IMG/VR virus record: IMGVR_UViG_2531839668_000004
Location: 1 to 12,517 of that record
DNA: 12,517 nt
Reading direction: 5' to 3' (one strand)
From: a virus
Taxonomy: Duplodnaviria > Heunggongvirae > Uroviricota > Caudoviricetes
This document shows, piece after piece, positions 1-12,517 of this stretch. Under the pieces are notes generated by a model. The model was not told the DNA's origin. It saw only the letters and a list, made by a program, of their open reading frames with translations, and made no database searches. Both the position numbers and the translations under genes were made by a program. Positions within the stretch are counted from its first letter, which is position 1, and each line of letters opens with the position of its first letter.

Positions 1-297
1 AGGAAAAATCCGTATTGCCGGAGATGATGGGCTGCCTGCGTGGGCAGATATTCCTCACCCACGCATGAAGAACTTATTGAAATTACTGAATCAGAAAGAC
101 AGCTACTAATTAACCAGGCCAACGAATACATGAACAGTAAGCAATGGCCCGGTAAAGCCGCTATTGGTCGTCTGAAAGATGATGAACTGGCGCAATATAA
201 TTTGTGGCTGGATTATCTGGACGCACTGGAGCTGGTCGATACTTCCGGTGCGCCAGATATTGAATGGCCTACGCCTCCGGCAGTTCAGGCCAGATGA
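1..297 (+). pseudogene. Second tail fibre assembly (Tfa) gene copy, convergent with tfa; 5' part lies beyond the window and the reading frame appears shifted near 60-75
   Basis: The 40..297 ORF (85 aa) ends ...LWLDYLDALELVDTSGAPDIEWPTPP, the same C-terminal motif as the minus-strand Tfa (...DTSTAPDVIWPELP). Its frame has a stop at 25-27, but the adjacent frame is open from the window edge (..GLPAWADIPHP..) and would join it across a single-base shift. 3' ends of the two tfa copies overlap at 269-297. Confidence 0.5.
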
Positions 298-871
298 CAT
301 CCGGCGCGGTGCTGGTATCTGTTGCCGTCACCGCGTCAATGTAATCCAGCACAGCGTTAAGGCGGGTTGTTTCTGCCTGCGTCAGTTTACGTCCGGCCTG
401 CAATTTCAGCTGAATCAGACTGATGGAGGCCATTGCAGTATCAATCAGCGACTGGCGCTGTGCTTCTGCTGCATCTACTGCTGCGCCGTGCTGTGCCTCG
501 GTATCCGTCACCCATTTCTCACCATCCCATTTATCGTATGGCGTTAACGGGGCGATAGTGGTTGTATTATCAGGGTAATCACCCGGAGCTGTGATTTCTT
601 TTGATTCCCCTGTTTCGGTGCTAAAAACGATTTCACCGCGATGGTCTGGCATATATTCCCATGATTTTAAATCTGCTGAACGGCAGATAGTATAACCAGC
701 CTTATATGTACCAGGAGCATCTAAACAGGAATACGCCGGAATACCGACACCCACAACAAGATATTCGGTTGATGTGGAAAGATATTCCTTCGTCTCAGCA
801 TCAAAATTATAAACGGTAATGTTTCCTGCCTTTGTAGTAATGAGTTCGCTATTTAATACGGCTTTATTCAT
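269..871 (-). CDS. tfa: Tail fibre assembly protein (P2 gpG / Tfa family)
   Basis: 200-aa ORF directly downstream of the tail fibre gene; start overlaps H stop (ATGA). C-terminus ...RLNAVLDYIDAVTATDTSTAPDVIWPELPEA matches the conserved Tfa C-terminal motif of enterobacterial phages. Confidence 0.9.
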   Translation of the reverse strand: MNKAVLNSELITTKAGNITVYNFDAETKEYLSTSTEYLVVGVGIPAYSCLDAPGTYKAGYTICRSADLKSWEYMPDHRGEIVFSTETGESKEITAPGDYPDNTTTIAPLTPYDKWDGEKWVTDTEAQHGAAVDAAEAQRQSLIDTAMASISLIQLKLQAGRKLTQAETTRLNAVLDYIDAVTATDTSTAPDVIWPELPEA

Positions 872-2355
872 CAGGCTGCCCTCACGATATAGTTAAATGC
901 GACGTTGCGCGGCCGGGTTTCAGAACCACCAACCGATACCGTAGAAATTGAATTTGCCGTAATAAGTTCCCCGAAAGCATCAGCCGTAACTACGAACCGA
1001 CCTCCCGTTGGATCAAAACTTTTTAGCGCATAGTACTGGTCAAACCAGTGCCCATGAGAAGCAAATAAATGGTCTTGAGATGTCAACAAACCACGAGAGG
1101 AATCCACCCCGCGCCCATCATCCCATCCACGAATAAATTCACCGCGTAAATCAGGCAATTTATTTGTCGGGTAAGCCTTTGCCAGTTCCGGGTATTCTTC
1201 AGCAGAAAAAGCCGCACCATTGCATTTCAACCAGCCTGTTGGCGGAGTGGCTGAAGGCCACGGAACAGGCACCCCAACAGGTAATGCTGAGCCTTCTCCC
1301 AAACCAAGGTATGTGAGAAGACCAGCTACATCCTTTCCACTCAAATTAGTCAGCGTATTGTCCAGCGGTTGTTTACCTGCCAGCGCATTAAGCATTGTCG
1401 TGGCAAAGTTCGGGTCATTCCCCAGAGCTGCCGCCAGTTCGTTCAGTGTATCCAGTGCCGCAGGTGCAGAACCCACCATTGCCGCAATCGCCGATTTCAC
1501 AAATGCCGTGGTGGCAATCTGTGTATTGTTGACCGACTGTGCCGCCGTGGGGGCTGTTGGCGTTCCGGTGAGTGCCGGACTCGACAACGGTGCTTTTAGT
1601 GCCAGCGCATTGTTAATGGTGGTACTGAAATTCGGATCATTGTTAATGGCTGCGGCTATTTCTTTCAGCGTGTCCAGCGTGGCTGGCGCACCATTAATAA
1701 GGGCCGTCAGTGCCGCCTGTACAAACGCAGTGGTCGCAACCTGCGTGGTATTATTCCCCGCCGCTGGCGTTGGCGCTTTGGGGGTTCCGGTAAATGTCGG
1801 GCTGGCTTTTGGCGCGTACTGTGAATGCGGGTCCGGTGCGGCAAGATGTTTTGCCATCTGATCATCCGCGTACACCTTCAGCTCCAGTGCCTTGTCATCC
1901 ACATACTTGCGAGTTGCCAGCACTACAGCAGGGTCGATTTTCAGGGTGATATTGTCCGTGCTGCTGGTAATCAGCACCATGCGCACGGTCTGAGTGCGCC
2001 CGCTACCTTCAGCCAGTTGCGGCTTATAGCTTTCCGGGCAGTTGCCCACGGCAATCAATGCCCCGGACTCATCAAACAAGCCCACTTCACGTATCCACCA
2101 ACCGCCCTCGTTTTCAGGGATCACCTGTTCGGCAATAATCTGGCTGCTGTTCTGCGGGTCGATATAAAGCATATTCAGCGCAGCCCGGCGTTTCTCATTT
2201 ACCAGTGCCGTCTGCTTTGCGTCCGGCGTTGGCAATACTCCACCGCCATCGCCCACCGCCATATGGGTAATTTTTAGCGGCACACCGAGCGCGGCGGCGC
2301 TGGCAAGTTTCGCCGCGCCAATATCCGTCAGCAGGGTATAAAATTTTGTGCTCAT
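871..2355 (-). CDS. H: Tail fibre protein (P2 gpH-like): conserved N-terminal domain, duplicated Ala-rich shaft repeat, variable receptor-binding C-terminus
   Basis: 494-aa ORF. N-terminus MSTKFYTLLTDIGAAKLA...MAVGDGGG...ESYKPQLAEGSGR resembles the P2 H N-terminal domain. Internal ..ATTAFV..DTLNELAAALGNDPNFATT..NALAGKQP repeat and C-terminal ...ETRPRNVAFNYIVRAA are typical of side tail fibres. Start overlaps I stop. Confidence 0.9.
   Translation of the reverse strand: MSTKFYTLLTDIGAAKLASAAALGVPLKITHMAVGDGGGVLPTPDAKQTALVNEKRRAALNMLYIDPQNSSQIIAEQVIPENEGGWWIREVGLFDESGALIAVGNCPESYKPQLAEGSGRTQTVRMVLITSSTDNITLKIDPAVVLATRKYVDDKALELKVYADDQMAKHLAAPDPHSQYAPKASPTFTGTPKAPTPAAGNNTTQVATTAFVQAALTALINGAPATLDTLKEIAAAINNDPNFSTTINNALALKAPLSSPALTGTPTAPTAAQSVNNTQIATTAFVKSAIAAMVGSAPAALDTLNELAAALGNDPNFATTMLNALAGKQPLDNTLTNLSGKDVAGLLTYLGLGEGSALPVGVPVPWPSATPPTGWLKCNGAAFSAEEYPELAKAYPTNKLPDLRGEFIRGWDDGRGVDSSRGLLTSQDHLFASHGHWFDQYYALKSFDPTGGRFVVTADAFGELITANSISTVSVGGSETRPRNVAFNYIVRAA
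1294..1319. other. Candidate serine-invertase crossover site (hix/gix/cix-like 26-bp imperfect palindrome) inside gene H
   Basis: TTCTCCCAAACCAAGGTATGTGAGAA has the AAACC-AAGGT core and TTCT...AGAA flanks of Hin/Gin/Cin/Pin sites, about 19 of 26 positions matching hixL as I recall it. It encodes LTYLGLGEG at the boundary between the conserved and variable parts of H. Confidence 0.5.
1385..1790. repeat. Diverged tandem duplication (two units of about 200 bp) inside H encoding the repeated Ala/Thr-rich shaft motif
   Basis: Protein repeats TQVATTAFVQAALTALINGAPATLDTLKEIAAAINNDPNFSTTINNALALKAP and TQIATTAFVKSAIAAMVGSAPAALDTLNELAAALGNDPNFATTMLNALAGKQP; the corresponding DNA segments are visibly similar. 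Boundaries approximate. Confidence 0.5.
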
Positions 2356-2957
2356 GGATTCACTCTCATTGTGTCAATAACATGGACCGCCCCGCCTTCA
2401 TGCGCGGTGCCACCGGAAATAATCGTTTCGTTGATATACGGATAGATCGTGATTTCTTCGCCAAGATAGCTGGCGGCTCCCACCCAATGCGGGCCGCTGG
2501 TCTGCAGATTGATGGACATGCCGATCATGTGGCGGCTACATGGTTTGGCATCGCTTATCAGTCGCTCAAGTTCCAGATAGGTATCTTCAGTGATGCCCTG
2601 GTCCTGCACGCCGATATCCAGGCGAAACGTGCCCGGTGTTTCTCCGGTCTGCCACCACTCAATAATGCGGATCAGGAATCCGAACGGCTCCACCACCCGC
2701 CGCACGGCACTGGTGGTCCCTTTATGCTGATGAATATAAAAAGCATCCTTCACCACCTGGCGCTTGACGCTTTCTGTCCAGCCCTCGTCCCAGCGATCCA
2801 CAGAGAACGCCCAGGCGAGATAAGGCAGGAAACTGACCGGACAGGTTGCCGGATTCCACAAGTCACGAAGCGGCACCTGCAGATCAGAAATCCCGCTGCA
2901 GGTTTGCGCCAGTCGGCGCTCCAGTGGTGTTGAACCCGGTGGCAGCAGACTATTCAT
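2352..2957 (-). CDS. I: Baseplate assembly / tail protein I (P2 gpI-like)
   Basis: 201-aa ORF between J and H in P2 order; overlaps J stop and H start, indicating translational coupling. Assignment is by position and size. Confidence 0.85.
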   Translation of the reverse strand: MNSLLPPGSTPLERRLAQTCSGISDLQVPLRDLWNPATCPVSFLPYLAWAFSVDRWDEGWTESVKRQVVKDAFYIHQHKGTTSAVRRVVEPFGFLIRIIEWWQTGETPGTFRLDIGVQDQGITEDTYLELERLISDAKPCSRHMIGMSINLQTSGPHWVGAASYLGEEITIYPYINETIISGGTAHEGGAVHVIDTMRVNP

Positions 2958-3858
2958 CCGTTCCTCCGTTGGTTACGCTCCACTGCGTACATGATGCCGC
3001 CTGTGTTTTGTTCAGGACCACATCCGCCAGAGGAGAAGCCAGCTCCACACGCTGCACCCCCTCAACATGCAGGGCGGCAAAGATGGCGCTACGGCGAATA
3101 TCCCGACCAAGACGCGTCTGACTGGCGATGTACTTCTGCAGGCTGGCTTTTGCCGCTGCCATTACCGGCTCTGCTTCCGGTCCAGGATAGAGAAAAATGG
3201 TGGCTTCCACGCGATACGGGATGATTTCTGCGCTGCGAACCGTCAGACGGTCAGCCACCGGGCGGACGTTCTCACTGTTCAGAGCTTTTTCCACCACGTC
3301 CAGCAGGTCTTTTTCTGCAGTTCCATCGCCTTCGCGGCTAAGGACAGTCAGCACCACCTCTGCAGGTGCCGGGCTGGTTGCACTGGCATCCGCCACCCGA
3401 CCGTCGGCGCTTCGGGCATGAAATTCATAAGCTGCAGTTGGCCCCGCAACAGAAAGCCCTTCAAAGGCTGCAGGCACACGCAGGCGCAACGCTTCATCGC
3501 TTTCCATCACAGCTGCAACCGGCGGCACAGCATCATTATCAGCAGGCGTCACCGTCAGGCGTGTCACGTTGTAGTTGGCAGCGAGCTGGTCAAGATCGCC
3601 GCCCATCGCGTAAGCCACCATCACCGCCTGCGCGGCTTCGTTAATGCGCTGGCGCAGAAGCAACTCACGGTAAGCGTTCTCCTGCAACAATTTAGTGGCG
3701 GGTTCAGATTCCAGTTCCAGCGTGCGGATCACTGCTTCCTGCTCATCTTTCGGATGAAGCGCCACAAATTCTGCCTTGCGTTCGGCAAGCAGCGTCTCAA
3801 AGTCCGGCACATCCACAATCTGCGGTGCAGGCAACTGTGAAAGGTCAATCACTGCCAT
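2950..3858 (-). CDS. J: Baseplate assembly protein J (P2 gpJ-like)
   Basis: ORF track gives 2950..3897, but the likely start is the internal ATG (MAVIDLSQLPAPQ...) at 3858, preceded by an AGGAG ribosome-binding site and giving 302 aa, the size I recall for P2 gpJ. The longer version would overlap W. Confidence 0.85.
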   Translation of the reverse strand: MAVIDLSQLPAPQIVDVPDFETLLAERKAEFVALHPKDEQEAVIRTLELESEPATKLLQENAYRELLLRQRINEAAQAVMVAYAMGGDLDQLAANYNVTRLTVTPADNDAVPPVAAVMESDEALRLRVPAAFEGLSVAGPTAAYEFHARSADGRVADASATSPAPAEVVLTVLSREGDGTAEKDLLDVVEKALNSENVRPVADRLTVRSAEIIPYRVEATIFLYPGPEAEPVMAAAKASLQKYIASQTRLGRDIRRSAIFAALHVEGVQRVELASPLADVVLNKTQAASCTQWSVTNGGTDE

Positions 3859-4204
3859 TCTCTGCTCCTGTTGATACGGAAAGGGACACAGGCACACCGT
3901 TATTCCGCCGCCCGGTCAGCTCCACCACCATTGAACCGTCAAAATTGCTGTTGATGGTGATGGAATCCAGCGTCAACCGTGGCTCCCAGCGACTCAGCGC
4001 CACATACACTGCCGACATGACCTGCAGGCGTAATGCCGGATTTTGTGGCTGATCTATCAGTGCCGACAGCAGGGAACCATATTCCCGGCGGGCAATACGG
4101 CTACCCTGCGGTGTCAGCAGAATGTCCCGCACCGACTGGCGCAGATGATCAATATCAGTAATGACTTTGCCGCTGGTATTGTTCATCCCGCTATAAAGCG
4201 TCAT
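3845..4204 (-). CDS. W: Baseplate wedge protein W (GPW/gp25 family)
   Basis: 119-aa ORF between V and J; start overlaps V stop (ATGA). Size and position match P2 gpW. Confidence 0.85.
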   Translation of the reverse strand: MTLYSGMNNTSGKVITDIDHLRQSVRDILLTPQGSRIARREYGSLLSALIDQPQNPALRLQVMSAVYVALSRWEPRLTLDSITINSNFDGSMVVELTGRRNNGVPVSLSVSTGAENGSD

Positions 4205-4779
4205 ACCGGGCCTCCGGTTGTATCGCCGCCTTTCAGGACGCCAGTATGCTGATGCGCATCAACCACGATCCCGTTAGAACTCATCGCTCCGCCGCCCTGG
4301 ATAACGCCACCATTGATCACCACTTCGCTGTTAATACGCGTGCGGTCAGCCTCCAGTACAAACTCACTGGTTTTCATGGTGATGTTGTCAGCAGCCTCAA
4401 TGACCATTGATTTGATGCCCCTGACATACCAGCGCCCGGTGGCGGGTTCGTATTCAAACCAGCCACCGTCAGGATGTTCTGTCACGCAGGCGTCCGCCGA
4501 CGTCGACGGTGGTGCGAACTGATTCGAATAGACAGCGGGCAGCGCAAAGGCGGTTTCCAGATTGCCGCCCAGACTCAGCAGCACCACCTGCTCACCTTCC
4601 GATGGTCGCCACCATGTACGGGCATTCCCGGCACGCAGCGTCAGCCAGCTGATCCAGTTGGTTTCAAGCTCGCCCGTTTTCACCCGGCAAAGCCAGTTTT
4701 CCCGGTCCACTTCGGTGACTACCCCTGTGCGGATCAGGTTGGTGATAAGGCGCATGATTTCGGTTAATTGTGCGTTCAT
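4201..4779 (-). CDS. V: Baseplate central spike / assembly protein V (P2 gpV-like)
   Basis: 192-aa ORF; N-terminus MNAQLTEIMRLITNLIRTGVVTEVD resembles the P2 gpV N-terminus as I recall it. First gene after a 68-bp intergenic gap. Confidence 0.85.
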   Translation of the reverse strand: MNAQLTEIMRLITNLIRTGVVTEVDRENWLCRVKTGELETNWISWLTLRAGNARTWWRPSEGEQVVLLSLGGNLETAFALPAVYSNQFAPPSTSADACVTEHPDGGWFEYEPATGRWYVRGIKSMVIEAADNITMKTSEFVLEADRTRINSEVVINGGVIQGGGAMSSNGIVVDAHQHTGVLKGGDTTGGPV

Positions 4780-4825
4780 AGGGAAAGGTTGCCATCAGAG
4801 GAAGAAAGGCGGCAGTGCTGCAACT

Positions 4826-4843
4826 TGTATCAGTGCTGATACA
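4826..4843 (-). promoter_or_regulatory. TGT-N12-ACA dyad in the S-V intergenic region; candidate Ogr/Delta-type late-activator site of promoter P_V
   Basis: TGTATCAGTGCTGATACA: perfect 9-bp arms of dyad symmetry, 5 nt after the S stop and about 55 bp before the V start codon. P2-like late promoters carry a TGT-N12-ACA element, and P2 has a late promoter in front of V. No clear -10 hexamer seen, and the spacing to the ATG leaves little leader. Confidence 0.4.
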
Positions 4844-4847
4844 AAGA

Positions 4848-5294
4848 TCACCCCGCCAGCCATTGCAGAATCATGTCGCGGGTCATTGCCTCAACATCAT
4901 CATTTACACCCAGAAGGCGACGCTCTGCGTAACGCACCTCCGGTCCCTTACGACTGACGCGATCTCGCAGGCCGTAATGGTGAACGCGGGCAATGCGCTG
5001 CACCTTGCCTTTAAACTGCACGCTGGCAGAGTCGGTGCTGGCGGCAGTTTTCAGGTATTTTGTGGTGCGCAGCTTTGCAAACATCTGACGTTTGATACGG
5101 CCTTTTTTACTGCGTGCTGTTACCCGTCGCGGTTCATAGCTGCTGCCGTCAGGGTTGCGCTGCATCCTGATATTCTGCTGCTGTGTCCGGCGAAGTTCCT
5201 GCGCCAGCTGGCGCATCATGCGGCTTCTCGAGGCTGGTTCCAGATTCGCCAGCAAGGCACTCAGCCAGTCGTCCACCTTCTGCAGTTCAGCCAC
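4848..5294 (-). CDS. S: Tail completion protein S (P2 gpS-like virion morphogenesis protein)
   Basis: 148-aa ORF downstream of R with an 8-bp overlap; size and position match P2 gpS. Confidence 0.85.
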   Translation of the reverse strand: MAELQKVDDWLSALLANLEPASRSRMMRQLAQELRRTQQQNIRMQRNPDGSSYEPRRVTARSKKGRIKRQMFAKLRTTKYLKTAASTDSASVQFKGKVQRIARVHHYGLRDRVSRKGPEVRYAERRLLGVNDDVEAMTRDMILQWLAG

Positions 5295-5739
5295 GTTTCA
5301 CCGTCCACATTTCTTCAGGTGCATCAGGTTCCGCTATAGCTTCAACGCTCGACACACTGCCGTCAGTGCTGACCAGCACACGTTCCGTCAGTTGCAGGTT
5401 CAGGCTGATATCACAGACATCGTTGCGCAGAATATCCACCTCAAAGGTGAATAGCTTTTCCCGTAACGCCGGGTTATTGATGGCATCGGGCTGGTTATCC
5501 CTCAGCCACAGCAAAACCGGGGCCATCAGCAGATTCTGGTCGCCGCTGAAATCTTCAATCACCGCGTTCAGGGTGTAACGGTACTCCCACGACATGGAGC
5601 TGGCCCCCGTGGCAACCAGCGAACCGTTATCCACAAACAGATGCAGTTTGTCCGGGTTATTGCGGACATAAGGCACCGCTTTATTGAGGGCGTGGCGCAG
5701 GGATTGTGGTTTGTTCACTGTTTCGCTCCTGACACGCAA
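5287..5739 (-). CDS. R: Tail completion protein R (P2 gpR-like)
   Basis: 150-aa ORF; size and position between the lysis genes and S match P2 gpR. Confidence 0.85.
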   Translation of the reverse strand: MRVRSETVNKPQSLRHALNKAVPYVRNNPDKLHLFVDNGSLVATGASSMSWEYRYTLNAVIEDFSGDQNLLMAPVLLWLRDNQPDAINNPALREKLFTFEVDILRNDVCDISLNLQLTERVLVSTDGSVSSVEAIAEPDAPEEMWTVKRG

Positions 5740-5971
5740 TAATCATGTCCACTTTGTCTGCACAGACCGCCCAGGCGGCCTCCGTTTCATCCAGCAACGC
5801 GTTCAGATCACCGTTAGTGCGCGGCGCTGCCTGATCCAGCCGACACGGCGTCACTCGCGGACAACCACTGACGGTAAGCTGCACCTCCGGTGAGCGTCGG
5901 ACGTTCCCGCAGCCGGATAATGTCAGCAGGCAAAGGAGTATCAGCCCAGCGGCGTAAATCCTCGTTCTCAC
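5681..5971 (-). CDS. lysC: Outer-membrane spanin lipoprotein (P2 LysC / Rz1-like), starting inside lysB in another frame
   Basis: 96 aa; N-terminus MRTRIYAAGLILLCLLTLSGC is a signal peptide with a lipobox (LSGC), followed by a Pro-rich region. The ORF starts within lysB and runs past its stop into the 5' end of R. Confidence 0.75.
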   Translation of the reverse strand: MRTRIYAAGLILLCLLTLSGCGNVRRSPEVQLTVSGCPRVTPCRLDQAAPRTNGDLNALLDETEAAWAVCADKVDMIIACQERNSEQTTIPAPRPQ

Positions 5972-6242
5972 GTTTCAGTTCCTCAATCCGATGTTGTCGT
6001 TGTCTCAGCAGCGCGCTGGTCTGTTCTGCTTCGGCATAGAGCCGCGCCTGCTCCCGGTTATTGGTTTCAGTCAGAATGGACAGGCTGATAAGCTGGCTGT
6101 TGCTCTTTGCCAGTGCCTGGCTTTTGCTCCGCAGCTCGTCTGCCTGCGTGCTGATGGTCTGGCTGGCATCAGCCAGCCGCCACGTCTGCCAGCCCAGCGA
6201 CGCCAGTAATAACGCCAGCACAACCAGCAGCAACCGGTTCAT
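5814..6242 (-). CDS. lysB: Inner-membrane spanin (P2 LysB / Rz-like)
   Basis: 142 aa; N-terminal transmembrane segment MNRLLLVVLALLLASLGWQ followed by a charged, coiled-coil-like region (EELKRENEDLRRW). Start overlaps lysA stop. Confidence 0.8.
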   Translation of the reverse strand: MNRLLLVVLALLLASLGWQTWRLADASQTISTQADELRSKSQALAKSNSQLISLSILTETNNREQARLYAEAEQTSALLRQRQHRIEELKRENEDLRRWADTPLPADIIRLRERPTLTGGAAYRQWLSASDAVSAGSGSAAH

Positions 6243-6616
6243 GCTGCTACCTGTTGCGCCATCTGGTTACGAGTGATCCAGAAGGCAATAACGGTCAGCA
6301 GATAAAAGACCAGGGTAATGGCCCACCCCGTCCAGGCGAGACTTACGACAATCAGCAATCGCATAACCCAGCTGATAAATACGTTTTCTTTTCGGGTAAT
6401 GCTCTTCAGCAAAGATGCCCTCAACTCCTGCCAGAGCGGGCCGTTCTTAATTAACGCAACCAGTGCTACCGGAATTGCCCCCCATGTCAGCAGGCAGGCT
6501 ACCCAGACACCGGACGCTGCCAGTACCGGAAAAATCCCCTGCGGATACACCATTGCTGCGATTAACAGCGCCATCCATAACATCAGAAACAGTCCGCTGA
6601 TTAATTTCTTTTTCAT
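6239..6616 (-). CDS. lysA: LysA-like membrane protein of the lysis cassette
   Basis: ORF track gives 6239..6688; the likely start is the ATG at 6616 (MKKKLISGLFLMLWMALLIAAMV...), one nt after the K stop with a GGGAG ribosome-binding site. Several hydrophobic helices; sits between K and lysB as in P2. Confidence 0.75.
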   Translation of the reverse strand: MKKKLISGLFLMLWMALLIAAMVYPQGIFPVLAASGVWVACLLTWGAIPVALVALIKNGPLWQELRASLLKSITRKENVFISWVMRLLIVVSLAWTGWAITLVFYLLTVIAFWITRNQMAQQVAA

Positions 6617-6617
6617 T

Positions 6618-7130
6618 TCAGTTTGCTCCCTGTAAACACCAGGCCATCTCCCGCGCACGGCGGTTATCCAGCCCCTGATTAAACACACCTTTTACATAAA
6701 CCCAGCGCGGCAACTGTCGGCACGCATCCGCCCAGCGCCGCTGATTGAGCAATTTCACCAGCGTGGAGCTGCAGGCATTGCCCGTCCCCACGTTGAAGGC
6801 AAACGACACCGTAGCGTCATACACCTTCTGTGGTGGCTGTTGCTTCACACACCTTTCCAGTGCCCGCTCCACACGCAGCACGTTGGAGATCAGCCCTTCT
6901 GCTGCCTGTCGTTCCGTGATTGTTTTGCCGGGAATGACGCCCGATGTATTACCAATGCCGTCGGTCCAGACACCCGCGCTGCACTGATACGGCTGCAGAC
7001 GACAGCCTTCGTAATCGGCAATCAGTTTCAGCCCCTCCACGGAGGTGTGAAGCTGCTGAAAACCCGGCAGCGTGGCAGCAATAGCCAGCACAGCCCCGAC
7101 AAGGCAGCGTTTAACGATTGATGGATTCAT
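6618..7130 (-). CDS. K: Endolysin (T4-lysozyme-like muramidase) with an N-terminal signal-arrest-release (SAR) type anchor; P1 Lyz-like
   Basis: 170 aa; weakly hydrophobic Gly/Ala-rich N-terminus MNPSIVKRCLVGAVLAIAATLPGF, then EGCRLQPYQCSAGVWTDGIGNT, i.e. an E-x8-C-x5-T catalytic motif closely resembling the P1 Lyz sequence as I recall it. Confidence 0.85.
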   Translation of the reverse strand: MNPSIVKRCLVGAVLAIAATLPGFQQLHTSVEGLKLIADYEGCRLQPYQCSAGVWTDGIGNTSGVIPGKTITERQAAEGLISNVLRVERALERCVKQQPPQKVYDATVSFAFNVGTGNACSSTLVKLLNQRRWADACRQLPRWVYVKGVFNQGLDNRRAREMAWCLQGAN

Positions 7131-7326
7131 AGTCCTCCCGCGAGATCTGCCCGTCGCGCAGAAGCTGGTAGGCTTTGTGTTTGTAGTACCAGTTGATAGC
7201 CAGCATCAGCACACCGATCATCAGGCCGCCCAGCGTTGAGGCATCCTTGATGGACAAATCGCCCAGCCAGGCCAGCACGACGGCGATGCAATACGTGATA
7301 AAGGCGCTGATTCGCTCAAGCGTCAT
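7111..7326 (-). CDS. Y: Holin (small two-transmembrane holin, pinholin-sized), P2 gpY position
   Basis: 71 aa with two hydrophobic helices (ISAFITYCIAVVLAWLG and LGGLMIGVLMLAINWYY) and a charged C-terminus; immediately upstream of, and overlapping, the endolysin gene. Confidence 0.8.
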   Translation of the reverse strand: MTLERISAFITYCIAVVLAWLGDLSIKDASTLGGLMIGVLMLAINWYYKHKAYQLLRDGQISREDYESINR

Positions 7327-7329
7327 AAT

Positions 7330-7533
7330 TCAGTCCCATAGCTGGACGGTCTGCACGGTGGTGGTTGTCGGAATGTCCGGCAGCTCCACCTGCAGCCCGT
7401 GAGGTAAAAAGGGGCCGTATTCGGCAAGCCCCGGATTTGCCTTCAGTACCTGCTCCGTGACACCCTGCGTGCGCCCGTAATGACGCCAGCAAAGCGCGTC
7501 CACCGTGTCATACTGATGCGCACGCACTTTCAT
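7330..7533 (-). CDS. X: Tail protein X (P2 gpX-like, LysM-like)
   Basis: 67 aa, the size of P2 gpX; MKVRAHQYDTVDALCWRHYGRTQGV...ANPGLAEYGPFLPHGLQVELPD resembles gpX as I recall it. Confidence 0.85.
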   Translation of the reverse strand: MKVRAHQYDTVDALCWRHYGRTQGVTEQVLKANPGLAEYGPFLPHGLQVELPDIPTTTTVQTVQLWD

Positions 7534-7997
7534 CAGATAAGCTCCACTGTGCAGTGCGGCGCATCCTGCACCCGACTGATGGCCCAGCGGGCGTCACGCC
7601 ACAAATCACCGCTGGATTCCGCCAGTTCCTCGCCCCGCTTCACACCGGATGCCGTGGCGTCATAGTCCTGGTAACGTTCGTTGAGCATGGCGCGTGCCCA
7701 GCAGTAAACCGCGTTGAAATAGTGCTGAATGCGCTCGCTTTTGCCGTCCAGTTGTTCCGCCGGGACTTCTGCCAGCGAGGCATACCCCAGCATCTGCTGG
7801 CGTCTGCGAAACTCATACAGCTCTGCGTTGACCTCCGAAATTGCCGACAGCGCAACCTGCTTTAAACGCGGCTGCGTCACCGTGCCGTCAGTGCGCATCA
7901 CGCTGCGAAACTCCGACGGGTCCACATCAGGCCAGAACGGCGTGTTTCTGATGATTTCCGCCTGTTCCGGTGCCTGTTCTGGCGCAACAAACTTCAT
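7533..7997 (-). CDS. L: Head completion / stabilisation protein L (P2 gpL-like)
   Basis: ORF track gives 7533..8060 from a GTG; the ATG at 7997 (MKFVAPEQ...) has an AGGAGA ribosome-binding site about 7 nt upstream and is the more likely start. Precedes X as in P2. Confidence 0.8.
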   Translation of the reverse strand: MKFVAPEQAPEQAEIIRNTPFWPDVDPSEFRSVMRTDGTVTQPRLKQVALSAISEVNAELYEFRRRQQMLGYASLAEVPAEQLDGKSERIQHYFNAVYCWARAMLNERYQDYDATASGVKRGEELAESSGDLWRDARWAISRVQDAPHCTVELI

Positions 7998-8190
7998 GCT
8001 GCTTTCTCCTGAAATAGAGGGCGGTGGACGGGATTTTGATGTGGCTGTGCCTTTCGCCACCCCGTGCCGCCCGTGCGCGGGGGCACGTTCTGTCAGCGGC
8101 TGTCATTGCGCAGTCTGCGCTCCAGCTGCTGTTTGTCTTTTTTCACGCCACAGCGGGGATCGAGCTGTAACGCATGGTTGAGATGGTTAA

Positions 8191-9375
8191 GGGCAGAAGG
8201 CACAGGCTCACGTCTTTAAGCAGTACATCATCGACTTCGCCAAAGAAGTGGAGGTGGAGCTGAAAGGCGATCCGATGGTGCTTCCTAACGGGGCCACGCT
8301 TTACTTCCTCGGCACCAATGCCCGCACGGCCCAGAGTTATCACGGCAACCTGTATCTGGATGAATATTTCTGGATACCGAAATTCCAGGAGCTGCGCAAA
8401 GTGGCTTCCGGTATGGCTATTCACAAGAAATGGCGACAAACCTATTTTTCCACGCCATCCAGCCTGACACACAGTGCTTATCCGTTCTGGTCCGGTGCGC
8501 TGTTCAACCGTGGGCGCAACAAAGCCGATAAGGTGGACATCGACCTGTCCCACAGCAATCTGGCTCCCGGCCTGCTGTGTGCAGACGGGCAGTACCGCCA
8601 GATAGTCACTGTGGAAGATGCGGTGCGCGGCGGCTGTAACCTGTTCGACCTCGACCAGTTGCGCATGGAGTACAGCCCGGACGAATACCAGAACCTGCTG
8701 ATGTGTGAGTTCGTGGACGATCTCGCGTCCGTATTCCCGCTCAGCGAGCTGCAGGCGTGCATGGTGGACAGCTGGGAAGTCTGGACCGACTTTCATGCAC
8801 TGGCCCTGCGCCCGTTTGGCTGGCGCGAAGTATGGATCGGTTATGACCCGGCGAAAGGTACGCAGAACGGCGACAGTGCCGGATGCGTGGTGGTGGCTCC
8901 GCCAGCCGTGCCGGGCGGTAAGTTCCGCATTCTTGAGCGTCACCAGTGGCGCGGGATGGACTTCCGCGCCCAGGCGGACGCCATCAAAAAACTGACCGAA
9001 CAGTACAACGTGACCTATATCGGCATCGACTCGACAGGTGTAGGTCACGGGGTTTATGAGAACGTGAAAGCGTTCTTTCCTGCCGTCCGGGAGTTTGTTT
9101 ACAACCCCAACGTTAAAAACGCCCTGGTACTCAAGGCCTACGACATTATCAGTCACCGTCGTCTGGAGTTTGACGCCGGACACACCGACATCGCGCAGTC
9201 ATTTATGGCAATCCGTCGCGCCACCACCGCCAGCGGCAACCGCCCGACCTATGAAGCCAGCCGCAGCGAAGAAGCCAGCCACGCCGATCTGGCCTGGGCA
9301 ACGATGCATGCACTGTTTAACGAACCGCTGCAGGGTGAATCCGCCAATACCAGCAATATTGTGGAGATTTTTTGA
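8191..9375 (+). pseudogene. P: Terminase large (ATPase) subunit P, N-terminally truncated: only about the C-terminal two-thirds is present
   Basis: The frame opens right after a TAA at 8188-8190 and runs to 9375 (about 394 codons, versus about 590 aa that I recall for P2 gpP). No N-terminal Walker A region is present; LYLDEYF is Walker-B-like. Stop overlaps the Q start (ATGA). Divergent from L, with nothing in between. Confidence 0.7.
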
Positions 9376-10418
9376 TGGGAAAGAGTAAGAAAAACCGCGC
9401 TGCGGCGACGAATCAGCTCAAGCATAAAAACCAGACTTCAGCCGAAGCATTCAGCTTCGGCGATCCCGTTCCGGTTCTGGACCGCCGTGAACTGCTGGAC
9501 TATGTGGAATGCGTACAGACAGATCGCTGGTATGAGCCGCCAGTGAGTTTTGACGGACTGGCGCGTACCTTTCGCGCCGCCGTGCACCACAGCTCACCGA
9601 TTGCAGTGAAATGCAACATTCTGACCAGCACCTACATCCCTCACCCGCTGCTCAGCCAGCAGGCTTTTTCACGTTTTGTGCAGGACTATCTGGTTTTTGG
9701 TAACGCCTACCTGGAGAAACGCACGAACCGGTTCGGTGAAGTTATCGCCCTTGAGCCTGCTCTGGCAAAATACACCCGACGCGGATTAGACCTGGATACC
9801 TACTGGTTTGTGCAATACGGTATGACAACCCAGCCGTATCAGTTCACGAAAGGCAGCATTTTTCATCTGATGGAACCGGATATTAATCAGGAGATCTACG
9901 GCCTGCCCGGCTATCTTTCTGCCATCCCATCCGCTTTGCTCAACGAGTCCGCCACGCTGTTCCGCCGGAAGTATTACATTAACGGTAGTCATGCAGGCTT
10001 CATCATGTACATGACCGATGCCGCGCAGAACCAGGAGGATGTGAACAACCTCCGCAATGCGATGAAAAGCGCCAAAGGTCCAGGCAACTTCCGCAACCTG
10101 TTTATGTACTCGCCTAACGGCAAAAAGGACGGGCTTCAGATCATCCCGTTGTCAGAAGTTGCGGCGAAGGATGAGTTTCTGAATATCAAGAACGTGAGCC
10201 GTGATGACATGATGGCTGCGCACCGCGTGCCGCCGCAAATGATGGGGATTATGCCTAATAATGTTGGAGGGTTTGGGGATGTGGAAAAAGCCGCGAAGGT
10301 TTTTGTCAGAAATGAGTTGGTTCCTTTGCAGAAAAGACTAGTTGAGCTAAACACCTGGATAAATCAAAATATTGTGTCATTTAATGACTACATCCTTGAC
10401 CAAGATAAGGGCATTTAA
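9372..10418 (+). CDS. Q: Portal protein (P2 gpQ-like)
   Basis: 348 aa, close to the size of P2 gpQ; coupled to P by an ATGA overlap. The last roughly 35 codons are encoded by AT-rich DNA. Confidence 0.85.
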   Translation: MMGKSKKNRAAATNQLKHKNQTSAEAFSFGDPVPVLDRRELLDYVECVQTDRWYEPPVSFDGLARTFRAAVHHSSPIAVKCNILTSTYIPHPLLSQQAFSRFVQDYLVFGNAYLEKRTNRFGEVIALEPALAKYTRRGLDLDTYWFVQYGMTTQPYQFTKGSIFHLMEPDINQEIYGLPGYLSAIPSALLNESATLFRRKYYINGSHAGFIMYMTDAAQNQEDVNNLRNAMKSAKGPGNFRNLFMYSPNGKKDGLQIIPLSEVAAKDEFLNIKNVSRDDMMAAHRVPPQMMGIMPNNVGGFGDVEKAAKVFVRNELVPLQKRLVELNTWINQNIVSFNDYILDQDKGI

Positions 10419-10429
10419 TGCCCTTTTTT
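10407..10429 (+). terminator. Intrinsic terminator hairpin shared by the convergent Q and membrane-protein genes
   Basis: AAGGGCAT-TTA-ATGCCCTT stem-loop followed by a T-run; the Q stop codon lies in the loop, and the converging minus-strand gene ends at 10415. Confidence 0.6.
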
Positions 10430-11206
10430 ATCCTCATAAGCAACGTCATCGTATAATTTTAAGGCACCTAAATCATGTAATTGCTGCTTGAATTCCTTAC
10501 TTAAACTAAACCCCTGAAGGAGAGAATATTTTTCAATAAATTTCTTGGCAGGCTTTCCTACCGATGAAAAACCATTTAATAGCATCGCGCCAGATTCTAT
10601 AGAAGATATTTGTGCTCTAACTAATTTCGCATACTTGGTTTTTTCTTTCTCAGTCAAATAGTTAGAGTCGTTGATATGTTTAAAAATATGGTAAATATTC
10701 CTGAAATAATGTCCCACATTCGCAAAATTGTCACCTTCCAGATAAACCATATTAACTGAAAGCTCTAACCTTTCATCCAAAGGAAGTGAATCATCCACAA
10801 TATTAAGTAGGTTAAACTTCACTTCGGTAATGTATAATGAAAGAGCCTCTCGTCCTACATACACTTTTCCATCTGAATACGTTGTTTTAATTTCTGATAA
10901 GTTATCTTTATGAAATCTTAGTAACTCAAATAACACAGACTCGAATGACTGAATAGATGACTGCCTGGATGTAGAATATAGTGTGAAACAAACAAGCATG
11001 ATAGAGATAAAGGCCAGAGCAGGATTCAGTACACCACCAATATAATCGCCAAACTGTCCCCATTTCTCTACGGAATCACTCCATGAATACATTCCAAATT
11101 TACAAACATAGCTAACAAACACTATCAGCATTAAAATAAAAGCCAAAAACAACAGTGAATAAATAATGGCATAACGCTTAATATTTCGAAGAATGGCACC
11201 ACACAT
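10415..11206 (-). CDS. Membrane-anchored protein of unknown function (two N-terminal transmembrane helices plus a roughly 190-aa soluble domain); cargo gene
   Basis: ORF track gives 10415..11272 (285 aa), but that start overlaps the ASCH gene by 55 bp; the internal ATG at 11206 (MCGAILRNIKRYAIIYSLLFLAFILMLIVFVSYV...) avoids this. Second hydrophobic helix LNPALAFISIMLVCFTLY. AT-rich codon usage unlike the phage module. Confidence 0.6.
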   Translation of the reverse strand: MCGAILRNIKRYAIIYSLLFLAFILMLIVFVSYVCKFGMYSWSDSVEKWGQFGDYIGGVLNPALAFISIMLVCFTLYSTSRQSSIQSFESVLFELLRFHKDNLSEIKTTYSDGKVYVGREALSLYITEVKFNLLNIVDDSLPLDERLELSVNMVYLEGDNFANVGHYFRNIYHIFKHINDSNYLTEKEKTKYAKLVRAQISSIESGAMLLNGFSSVGKPAKKFIEKYSLLQGFSLSKEFKQQLHDLGALKLYDDVAYEDKKGH

Positions 11207-11217
11207 CTCACAATACC

Positions 11218-11595
11218 TTATATATAATCCATATTTAAATCTATTGTATAAATACCTTTCCTCGCCACACAAGGAATAGATTTTTTTAAAGTTCTAACAT
11301 TTTTAATTTCCCACACATAATAACCTGGAGACCAAGGCTTATTAAGAGTTGTTTCTTGGTTTTGTTTTAAGTAATCCTCATATGACCAATTTCTAACTGA
11401 AACAAAATCGACAATAGCCATAGCCACCCCATGATCTATATCGCTTTGATTTTTAAGATATTTATCATTCTGAACAAGAATGACGTTTTTTAATGGTATC
11501 GTTTCAGGATACCACGACCGTATTTCGATAGATTTAGAACCATTTATAATATTTTCTACCGCTGGAGTCAAAATCGATATAGCTTGAAACTTCAT
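11218..11595 (-). CDS. ASCH-domain (PUA-like beta-barrel) protein
   Basis: 125 aa; N-terminal ISILTPAVENIINGSKSIEIRSW contains the ASCH signature G-x-K-x-x-E-x-R. GAGGA ribosome-binding site before the start; AT-rich; upstream of and co-oriented with the membrane protein gene. Confidence 0.7.
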   Translation of the reverse strand: MKFQAISILTPAVENIINGSKSIEIRSWYPETIPLKNVILVQNDKYLKNQSDIDHGVAMAIVDFVSVRNWSYEDYLKQNQETTLNKPWSPGYYVWEIKNVRTLKKSIPCVARKGIYTIDLNMDYI

Positions 11596-11660
11596 GCTCT
11601 ATCCTCTACTATGCTAAGGCTATAACATTCTAACATAAATAAATAAACGGAGGTAATACT

Positions 11661-12206
11661 ATGTTAATTTTCATAGCAGGTGTTCATGGTGTAGGCAAAG
11701 GTTACTTGTGTTCATTTGCAAAAGATGATTTCGGGGTAACTCATGTAAGCGCAAGCGAACTTATAAAAAATAATTCTAATATTAAATTTGATAACAGTAA
11801 GTTAACGGCCACACCTGATAAAAACCAATCAATATTACTTACGGCACTTAATGCATTAAAGTCAAAGGTATCCAATATTTTATTGGATGGTCATTTTACC
11901 TTAATAAATAAAAATGGAGATATTGAAGTTCTCAAGCAAGAAGTATTTGAGGAAATGGGGCTAGATGGAGTAATTTTAGTTGAGGAGTCTCCCGATACAA
12001 TTAGAGAACGAATAATGAAACGAGATGGGAGTGATATTACTTATGATTTAAATAAGCTGATGGAAGCTGAAAGAGAAAACGCAAAATATGTTACAAATAA
12101 AATCAATGTACCATTAATTATCTTAGAATCCCCAACAACAAACGATTTATCTATTGCTCTAGAAAAACTGGGCATGGTTAAGAAACATGCCCAGATAACA
12201 TTATAA
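11661..12206 (+). CDS. Small P-loop NTPase, nucleoside/nucleotide-kinase-like
   Basis: 181 aa; Walker A MLIFIAGVHGVGKGY at the extreme N-terminus and a Walker-B-like hhhhD (ILLDGHF), the layout of small adenylate/shikimate-type kinases. GGAGG ribosome-binding site 7 nt upstream. Divergent from the ASCH gene across a 65-bp AT-rich gap. Confidence 0.65.
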   Translation: MLIFIAGVHGVGKGYLCSFAKDDFGVTHVSASELIKNNSNIKFDNSKLTATPDKNQSILLTALNALKSKVSNILLDGHFTLINKNGDIEVLKQEVFEEMGLDGVILVEESPDTIRERIMKRDGSDITYDLNKLMEAERENAKYVTNKINVPLIILESPTTNDLSIALEKLGMVKKHAQITL

Positions 12207-12517
12207 ATAACGATAAGACTGTGGGGCGACGCCGCCGGGAATCAACTCATTTAAGTCGACAGGGAATTTATATCTTTTAGGGCTTTTGATGGAAATAGCA
12301 AAAGCCTTTTCTCTTTGGTGGAAATAATCTTTAAAAAAAGAATGTGTAATTCCTGCATGAGCTTTCGTTTTATCCCACAATTCTGAAGGGGATAGAGCAA
12401 GAATATCTCCTACTTTAAATTCACCTATTACTTTGCCAACCGGCATCGTTGCGTAAATAACTATCGTATCAACATTTTTATTTCTAAAAATATTTTTCCG
12501 AAACTCATATTTTTTTA
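12201..12517 (-). CDS. Partial ORF (C-terminal part; N-terminus beyond the right window edge), unknown function
   Basis: ORF track shows 12201..12446 (81 aa), but the frame appears open upstream to the window edge (..DTIVIYATMPVGKVIGEFKVGDILALSP...). Convergent with the kinase gene, overlapping it by 6 bp. AT-rich. Confidence 0.5.
   Translation of the reverse strand, partial: KKYEFRKNIFRNKNVDTIVIYATMPVGKVIGEFKVGDILALSPSELWDKTKAHAGITHSFFKDYFHQREKAFAISIKSPKRYKFPVDLNELIPGGVAPQSYRYL

Follow-up and report, generated by a model that had tools for sequence, protein, structure and literature searches.

Invertase-driven exchange of tail-fibre tips is textbook knowledge for Mu, P1, and e14. The inversion of tail-fibre genes has also been documented in P2-like prophages. 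In those of EPEC E2348/69, read pairs and PCR demonstrated switching (PMC4272514), and in Fels-2 of Salmonella the inversion was deduced from a comparison of LT2 and LT7 (PMC7953296). The latter is consistent with a previous sequence-only reading of the DNA analysed here, which cited Fels-2 as a P2-like prophage encoding the invertase Fin. In P2-like phages, the tail-fibre hotspot often contains an invertase (preprint 10.1101/2024.10.15.618418). The e14 element of E. coli K-12, with its P segment and the invertase Pin (pinE), is a defective prophage in which the invertase and fibre segment are still switching (PMC4272514, PMC12529663).

The window analysed here is the whole draft contig AFAE02000002.1 (12517 bp), and window position 1 is the contig end. 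The left end of the window contains approximately two thirds of a DNA flip-switch of a familiar type. Positions 1–1319 very probably form the right-hand part of a two-state invertible tail-fibre segment of the Cin/Gin type, located in a P2-like E. coli prophage. With the exception of a 3182-bp deletion, the order of the open reading frames is colinear with that of P2-family prophages (Q / P ... L X holin lysozyme lysB/C R S V W J I H G). The case is ordinary for P2-like prophages, and its value as a discovery is low: the cassette arrangement is present in approximately 300 complete E. coli genomes.

The sequence-only reading likened the locus to the Mu G segment and the P1 C segment, and the comparison holds for both, with the gene order as in Mu and the convergent cassettes as in P1. 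The C segment (Cin, cixL/cixR) has the closest invertase, with 79% identity compared to 74% for Mu Gin. It shares with the window-type loci the TT core of the site and a constant fibre N-terminus with alternative C-termini, which have their own chaperones and are arranged in convergent cassettes. However, P1 cin reads towards the segment and has its 3′ end at cixL, whereas transcription of the window-type invertase leads away from the segment. The segments also differ in length (4.2 kb in P1, approximately 1.85 kb in window-type loci). The tips of the window-type loci are Collar and gp53-like, and their backbone is P2-like rather than P1-like. The G segment of Mu (Gin, gix) has the same order, Sc-site-Sv-U / U′-S′v-site-invertase, and in both cases the invertase gene lies beyond the segment and points away from it. 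By contrast, the core of gix is TC instead of TT, the G segment is 3 kb long, and U and U′ converge without the 29-nucleotide overlap of the tfa genes of the window. The Fels-2/Fin and EPEC loci belong to the same phage family, occupy the same position, with the fibre genes on one side and the tail sheath gene on the other, and have a serine invertase adjoining alternative fibre C-termini; they were compared by description, and the cassette types may differ. One of the EPEC loci, with three repeats, can adopt four states, whereas the window-type locus has two sites only. The likeness to e14, a lambdoid remnant, is likewise one of description, not of sequence.

Recombination site and tail-fibre genes of the window

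The 26-bp recombination site, which resembles cix, gix, and hix, is located at positions 1294–1319 inside the tail-fibre gene H, and its plus strand reads TTCTCCCAAACC AA GGTATGTGAGAA. The inner half-site (1294–1305) and the outer half-site (1308–1319) flank the crossover dinucleotide AA (1306–1307; TT on the minus strand), which constitutes bases 2–3 of the H codon Leu350. The site occurs once in the window when up to three mismatches are allowed, with a shuffle expectation of 0.00. The site is palindromic, although imperfectly so: the half-sites TTCTCCCAAACC and TTCTCACATACC have the same base at 10 of 12 positions. In the outside-to-inside direction, the site reads TTCTCACATACC TT GGTTTGGGAGAA, compared to TTATCCAATACC TT GGTTTAAGAGAA for cixR in the P1 record and TTATCCAAAACC TC GGTTTACAGGAA for gix in the Mu record. 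The sites have equal length and half-sites of the common form TTnTCnnAnACC, and the core, TT, is that of cix. The inner half-site GGTTTGGGAGAA agrees with the cix half-site GGTTTAAGAGAA at 10 of 12 bases. Megablast matches with other fibre tips, from many phages and prophages, begin at query positions 1293–1295 (H45–H48, H50, H51, H53–H55), which places the site where conserved H turns variable, as had been proposed.

The part of the invertible segment inside the window (1–1305) is the right-hand approximately 1.3 kb of a segment of approximately 1.85 kb, the remainder of which lies past the contig end. The gene H (871–2355, minus strand) encodes 494 amino acids. Its constant N-terminal part, Hc (1308–2355, minus strand; residues 1–349/350), is outside the segment and includes the Pfam Phage_tail_fib N-terminal domain (residues 1–150). 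The variable C-terminal part, Hv (871–1305, minus strand; approximately residues 351–494), is in the expressed position and contains the Pfam Collar domain PF07484 (residues 361–408). The equivalent of P2 gene G, tfa (269–871, minus strand; 200 residues), encodes the chaperone paired with Hv and is in the expressed orientation; its product belongs to Caudo_TAP (PF02413, E=6e-33) and is annotated in relatives as tfaE or tail fiber assembly protein. The state of the window is thus Hc-Hv, with the Collar domain, followed by tfa. The 3′ two thirds of tfa′ (1–297, plus strand), encoding the chaperone of the alternative tip, are in the silent orientation and are cut by the contig end. The two tfa genes are convergent, and their 3′ ends overlap by 29 nucleotides (269–297). 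A scan of the segment for promoters and terminators gave counts near the shuffle expectation.

Where the loci L001–L005 and L007 have CTCCACCC, the window has CTCACCC, and this deletion of 1 bp at position 56 spreads the translation of tfa′ over two reading frames. The site at the boundary of the conserved and variable parts of H, the convergent tfa pair, and the frameshift, all reported by the sequence-only reading, are therefore present in the sequence. Alignment of L001 and L002 shows an intact tfa′ of 147 residues, and tfa′ is also intact in L003 (Caudo_TAP, E=3.5e-31). A programmed frameshift was ruled out: the reading frame is unbroken in all six other loci with an alignment across position 56. 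The exact 32-nucleotide pattern across the frameshift had no matches in viral_contigs or in genome_contigs. The deletion is the sole difference between the window and L007 over 8200 nucleotides, is located 56 nucleotides from the end of the contig, and so may reflect an error in the consensus. Signs of decay so close to the end of a contig should be distrusted unless they are supported by reads.

Left-hand part of the segment in near-identical loci

With contig AFAE02000002.1 ending at window position 1, the left flank of the source is unreadable. Since this end falls within the invertible segment, the window contains a single site and lacks an invertase. The claim of a switch in the source strain is based on the loci of near-identical relatives. 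The loci L004, L005, and L007 are 99.94–99.99% identical to window positions 1–8199 and have the same orientation as the window. All three carry an intact 147-residue tfa′, a reading frame for a gp53-like C-terminus of H (H′v) was called in L004 and L007, and an inverted second site together with a 188-residue invertase is present in L004 and L005. In these two loci, which are 99.94–99.95% identical to the window, the second site and the invertase gene are where the sequence-only reading had placed them, to the left of the window. The inverted site, alternative H C-terminus, and serine invertase that it suggested looking for were thus found in loci nearly identical to the source, the flank of which cannot be read.

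The edges of the invertible segment in L003 and L004 are 27-nucleotide inverted repeats positioned 1818 nucleotides apart, which have only approximately 15 nucleotides of exact identity in common. The partner site in both loci, TTTTCTTAAACG TT GGTTTGGGAGAA, is inverted and shares its TT core with the site in H. The invertase gene begins 55 nucleotides past the second site. By extrapolation from the relatives, the missing parts in the source would lie approximately 0.5–1.2 kb to the left of window position 1, and the contig ends approximately 0.6 kb short of the expected place of the invertase gene. Draft contigs may stop inside invertible segments of this kind. A shufflon with at least three sites was ruled out, as matches to the site core in L004 number only two. 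When complete E. coli genomes were searched by megablast with the window, none of the records contained it in its entirety.

The invertase from L003, L004, and L005 contains the Pfam domains Resolvase and HTH_7 and matches the structure of Mu Gin (3uj3) with E=1e-92; the copies from L003 and L004 are identical. The catalytic Ser9 and residues Q150, R153, and L154 are invariant with Cin and Gin. The equivalents of the latter three in Hin are contacts for Fis, conserved in invertases only (PMC3798978). The stretch of L003 homologous to the annotated enhancer of P1 (nucleotides 19–90 of cin) is identical at 56 of 72 positions, which is weak evidence because the stretch is coding sequence. The stretch from the site to the start codon of the invertase aligns with the gixR-to-gin region of Mu with a single one-base gap. 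By analogy with its family, the invertase probably depends on Fis and an enhancer.

The following mechanism, in line with the known Cin and Gin systems, is the most likely one. The small serine invertase, encoded just past the contig end, would bind the two inverted 26-bp sites, one within H (1294–1319) and the other approximately 1.85 kb away beside the invertase gene. It would cut the central TT/AA dinucleotides and exchange the strands, as expected from the chemistry of the family, so that the segment flips. In the orientation of the window, the late operon would produce Hc with the Collar-domain tip, together with the chaperone tfa. In the opposite orientation, Hc would be in frame with the gp53-like tip, followed by tfa′. 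As the tips differ between the two states, the particles would be expected to bind different receptors, with a change of host range like that in related systems.

Segment orientation and alternative explanations

The segment is the opposite way round in L003, a prophage 99.97% identical to that of the window. Window positions 1–1310 align to L003 5475–4165 in inverted orientation with 99.85% identity, and positions 1293–8199 are colinear with L003 6001–12907 with 99.97% identity. The breakpoint lies within window positions 1293–1307, inside the site. In L003, the same Hc, up to the site-encoded GLGE, is joined to the other C-terminus, and Hc-H′v forms one continuous in-frame reading frame of 473 residues with a gp53-like C-terminus, followed by tfa′. 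The Hv sequence of L003 (4128–4604) is separated from Hc and adjoins the invertase. The flipped state is mislabelled by automatic annotation as a pseudogene and an orphan open reading frame. Among 5426 complete E. coli genomes, 252 have one orientation and 46 the other. Because L003 is so similar to the window yet oppositely oriented, an inversion must have taken place very recently in the lineage of the window. The flipped copy in L003 and the missing parts in the 99.94–99.99% identical loci support the proposal of the sequence-only reading that this is an invertible tail-fibre region.

The comparison of orientations is between strains, from assemblies that each give one orientation, and the short draft contig of the window stops inside the segment. 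The two orientations could therefore be arbitrary choices of the assembler. This explanation has next to no probability: an assembler needs reads that support a junction to output either orientation, the two junctions recur in 252 and 46 independent complete genomes, respectively, and mixed reads, if present, would themselves indicate switching. It is scarcely more probable that the site only marks a static mosaic junction at which fibre modules are swapped by homologous or illegitimate recombination, with the flip in L003 resulting from RecA-type recombination between short inverted repeats. Many unrelated fibre tips do meet the conserved H exactly at 1293–1295, which indicates that the region of the site doubles as a boundary of module exchange. 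However, the exact identity between the repeats is too short for efficient homologous recombination, the repeats have the half-site-core-half-site form of cix and gix with matching TT cores, and the Cin/Gin homologue is encoded right beside the second site in the Mu arrangement. Furthermore, measurements in P2-like prophages have demonstrated such switching (PMC4272514).

An invertase-driven switch could also have decayed, leaving a relic of the layout in a source strain whose segment has lost the ability to invert or to give a useful alternative fibre. The sequence-only reading considered this because of the frameshift in tfa′, and the prophage looks defective owing to the 3182-bp deletion, in which N and O were lost completely, together with the greater part of M and the 5′ part of P. 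The junction of this deletion, at window positions 8194–8199, was found in none of the 5426 complete genomes, and H118 has a different rearrangement. Nevertheless, we consider decay unlikely. Neither lesion affects a site or the invertase; the frameshift is in a chaperone gene rather than the recombination machinery, and its proximity to the contig end allows for an error in the consensus. Prophages that differ from the window by 0–4 substitutions over 8.2 kb keep both sites and an intact invertase, and the nearly identical L003 is in the opposite orientation. It is possible that the alternative fibre might not assemble in the source strain, tfa′ being frameshifted.

Possible consequences of the deletion of head genes

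Through the deletion, the genes of the capsid, scaffold, and small terminase are lost, and that of the large terminase is shortened. With approximately 3.2 kb of head genes absent, the prophage may make no particles; if the deletion is real, heads could not be formed, but tails might still be made. It is conceivable, although very unlikely, that the prophage is a P2-derived tailocin, a phage-tail-like bacteriocin, the killing range of which is toggled by the invertible fibre, or that flipped fibre fragments shield the receptors of the host. Carotovoricin Er is mentioned as a tailocin with a killing range toggled by an invertible fibre (cited in PMC4272514, ref. 46). For e14, flipped fibre fragments of StfE2, produced with PinQ, are reported to block phage receptors and thereby help the host (PMC12529663). 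The lysis cassette, baseplate, and fibre genes of the window differ from those of L007 at position 56 only.

Tail-fibre region and its recombination site

The window is occupied by the late region of a P2-like prophage, encoded on the minus strand. The tail-fibre gene H (871–2355, minus strand) encodes a protein of 494 residues in which Pfam places Phage_tail_fib at the N-terminus and Collar at residues 361–408; I, J, W, V, S, R, lysis genes, X, and L are located after H on the same strand. The chaperone gene tfa (269–871, minus strand; Caudo_TAP in Pfam) is the equivalent of P2 gene G. The second chaperone gene, tfa′, is represented by its 3′ two thirds (1–297, plus strand), which are read in one frame up to approximately position 56 and in another beyond it. 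The two genes converge, and their 3′ ends share 29 nucleotides (269–297).

The 26-bp sequence TTCTCCCAAACC-AA-GGTATGTGAGAA at positions 1294–1319 is an imperfect palindrome, the half-sites of which agree at 10 of 12 positions. It is single-copy in the window at up to three mismatches (shuffle expectation 0.00). The site lies in frame within H and encodes L-T-Y-L-G-L-G-E, with its central dinucleotide forming bases 2–3 of the Leu350 codon. Numerous phages and prophages that carry different fibre tips align from query positions 1293–1295 onwards, and sequence conservation stops at the site. The sequence-only reading had described a hix/gix-like site inside H at the transition from conserved to variable sequence, two convergent tfa copies with overlapping 3′ ends, and a frameshift in the second copy. 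All elements of that observation are real, because the site, the boundary, the convergent gene pair, and the frameshift, caused by a one-base deletion at position 56, have each been confirmed.

Two orientations of the tail-fibre segment

Comparison with related prophage loci shows that the region at positions 1–1319 is part of a two-state switch. The prophage of E. coli 31B19CPO012 (L003) is 99.97% identical to window positions 1293–12516; however, positions 1–1310 map in reverse onto L003 5475–4165 with 99.85% identity. The colinear and reversed alignments overlap only at 1293–1310, and the first mismatch of the reversed alignment is at window position 1308; therefore, the exchange point is confined to the interval made up of the inner half-site and the central AA. 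In L003, the constant N-terminal part of the fibre gene (Hc) is joined in frame to the alternative C-terminal part (H′v), forming one continuous 473-residue open reading frame with a gp53-like C-terminus, which is followed by an intact tfa′. The RefSeq/PGAP annotation of L003 5642–7063 (minus strand), which lists a truncated “phage tail protein” pseudogene (6674–7063) and a separate gp53-like reading frame (5642–6052), is wrong. The segment translates as an uninterrupted 473-residue fibre gene, and thus the automatic annotation misreads one state of the switch. In a set of 5426 complete E. coli genomes, the window arrangement occurs in 252 (matches covering at least 80% of positions 1–2400) and the flipped one in 46 (matches covering at least 80% of L003 5178–7063).

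The window spans the full length of contig AFAE02000002.1 (12517 bp) from the draft assembly GCA_000194645.2, with window position 1 being record position 1; locus L008 matches the window at 100% identity. The contig end falls 1293 nucleotides into the invertible segment, inside tfa′ and away from any recombination site. Three loci retrieved by exact look-up of the H protein (L004, L005, and L007) have the orientation of the window and are 99.94–99.99% identical to positions 1–8199. Beyond the window's end, all three contain an intact tfa′ of 147 residues. The reading frame for the gp53-like C-terminal domain (H′v, 136 residues) is called in L004 and interrupted by a contig end in L007. The inverted copy of the site and a 188-residue Resolvase/HTH_7 gene, followed by the tail sheath gene, are present in L004 and L005. 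The RefSeq annotation of two E. coli prophages that are 96–97% identical (L001 and L002) has the same layout. The site pair in L003 and L004 consists of 27-nucleotide inverted repeats 1818 nucleotides apart, and a search for a third site revealed none beyond these two. By extrapolation, the second site would lie approximately 0.53 kb and the invertase gene approximately 0.6–1.2 kb to the left of window position 1. In a 97.4%-identical relative (L006 10059–10941), tfa′ is called at 146 residues, the gp53-like reading frame is uncalled, and the invertase gene starts 23 nucleotides closer, which suggests that its alternative cassette carries a small indel.

Invertase and relationship to known switches

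The invertase sequence is identical between L003 and L004. Residues 1–184 match the Mu Gin crystal-structure sequence 3uj3 (E = 1e-92), and the identity to P1 Cin is 79% by tblastn; in a multiple alignment, the identities are 77% with Cin and 74% with Gin. All three proteins share Ser9 and Q150/R153/L154. In Hin, the equivalents of the latter three, Gln151, Arg154, and Leu155, are described as Fis contacts conserved among invertases only (PMC3798978).

Read from the outside to the inside of the segment, the site in H is TTCTCACATACC TT GGTTTGGGAGAA and that adjoining the invertase TTTTCTTAAACG TT GGTTTGGGAGAA. The corresponding sequences are CAATCCTAAACC TT GGTTTAAGAGAA for P1 cixL, TTATCCAATACC TT GGTTTAAGAGAA for P1 cixR, and TTATCCAAAACC TC GGTTTACAGGAA for Mu gix. 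The two sites of the element are thus cix-like and share the TT core of cix, unlike the TC core of gix. By contrast, the gene arrangement resembles that of Mu: the invertase gene is outside the segment and transcribed away from it, whereas P1 cin reads towards the segment, and the interval between the site and the start codon aligns to the gixR–gin interval of Mu with one single-base gap. The stretch homologous to the annotated P1 enhancer (nucleotides 19–90 of cin) is identical at 56 of 72 positions, which says little because it is coding sequence.

In one orientation, Hc-Hv with a Collar-type tip is expressed together with tfa, and in the other, Hc-H′v with a gp53-like tip together with tfa′, with expression in both states coming from the late operon that lies upstream of H. 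By analogy with the family, the serine recombinase would cleave at the central dinucleotide with subunit rotation, inversion may be activated by a Fis-bound enhancer, and the two kinds of particles may have alternative host ranges.

Tail-fibre inversion in P2-like prophages is already known. It has been demonstrated by read pairs and PCR in P2-like prophages of EPEC E2348/69 (PMC4272514). Inversion of a fibre gene adjoining fin has been described in Fels-2 (PMC7953296), in agreement with the earlier mention of this prophage as P2-like and encoding the Fin invertase. Invertases and inversions are frequent at this hotspot of P2-like phages according to a survey preprint (10.1101/2024.10.15.618418). 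The sequence-only reading thus identified the element correctly, and it is of a known kind that is widespread in E. coli.

Integrity of the switch and of the prophage

The suggestion that the switch has decayed is weakly supported at best. The frameshift results from the loss of one base at position 56, where CTCCACCC in every relative aligned across this point becomes CTCACCC. It affects the chaperone gene and leaves the sites and the invertase untouched. Consensus error is a realistic alternative, because the contig and L007 are otherwise identical across 8200 aligned bases and the deletion is located 56 nucleotides from the contig end.

The contig lacks 3182 bp present in L003 (12908–16089), L004, L005, and L007, with the junction at approximately 8194–8199. 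The missing sequence comprises most of M (terminase small subunit), the whole of N (capsid) and O (scaffold), and the 5′ part of P (terminase), of which a truncated reading frame remains at 8248–9375. A few bases of microhomology are present at the junction, which was found in none of the 5426 complete E. coli genomes. The gap is either a real deletion, making the prophage defective, or a misassembly. If the deletion is real, the prophage is unable to build heads; this would not keep the DNA from inverting, as e14 illustrates (PMC4272514, PMC12529663). The only less ordinary reading, that loss of the head genes turned the prophage into a tailocin-like element, or one serving the host, whose fibre can be switched, is very improbable. 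A 346-residue reading frame at 8143–9183 (minus strand), antisense to the truncated terminase gene and spanning the junction region, is probably spurious. Accessory genes past the portal gene (10415–12446), annotated in L003 as a putative abortive-infection protein, two ASCH-domain proteins, and an ATP-binding protein, form a P2-type cargo or defence hotspot with no relation to the fibre switch.
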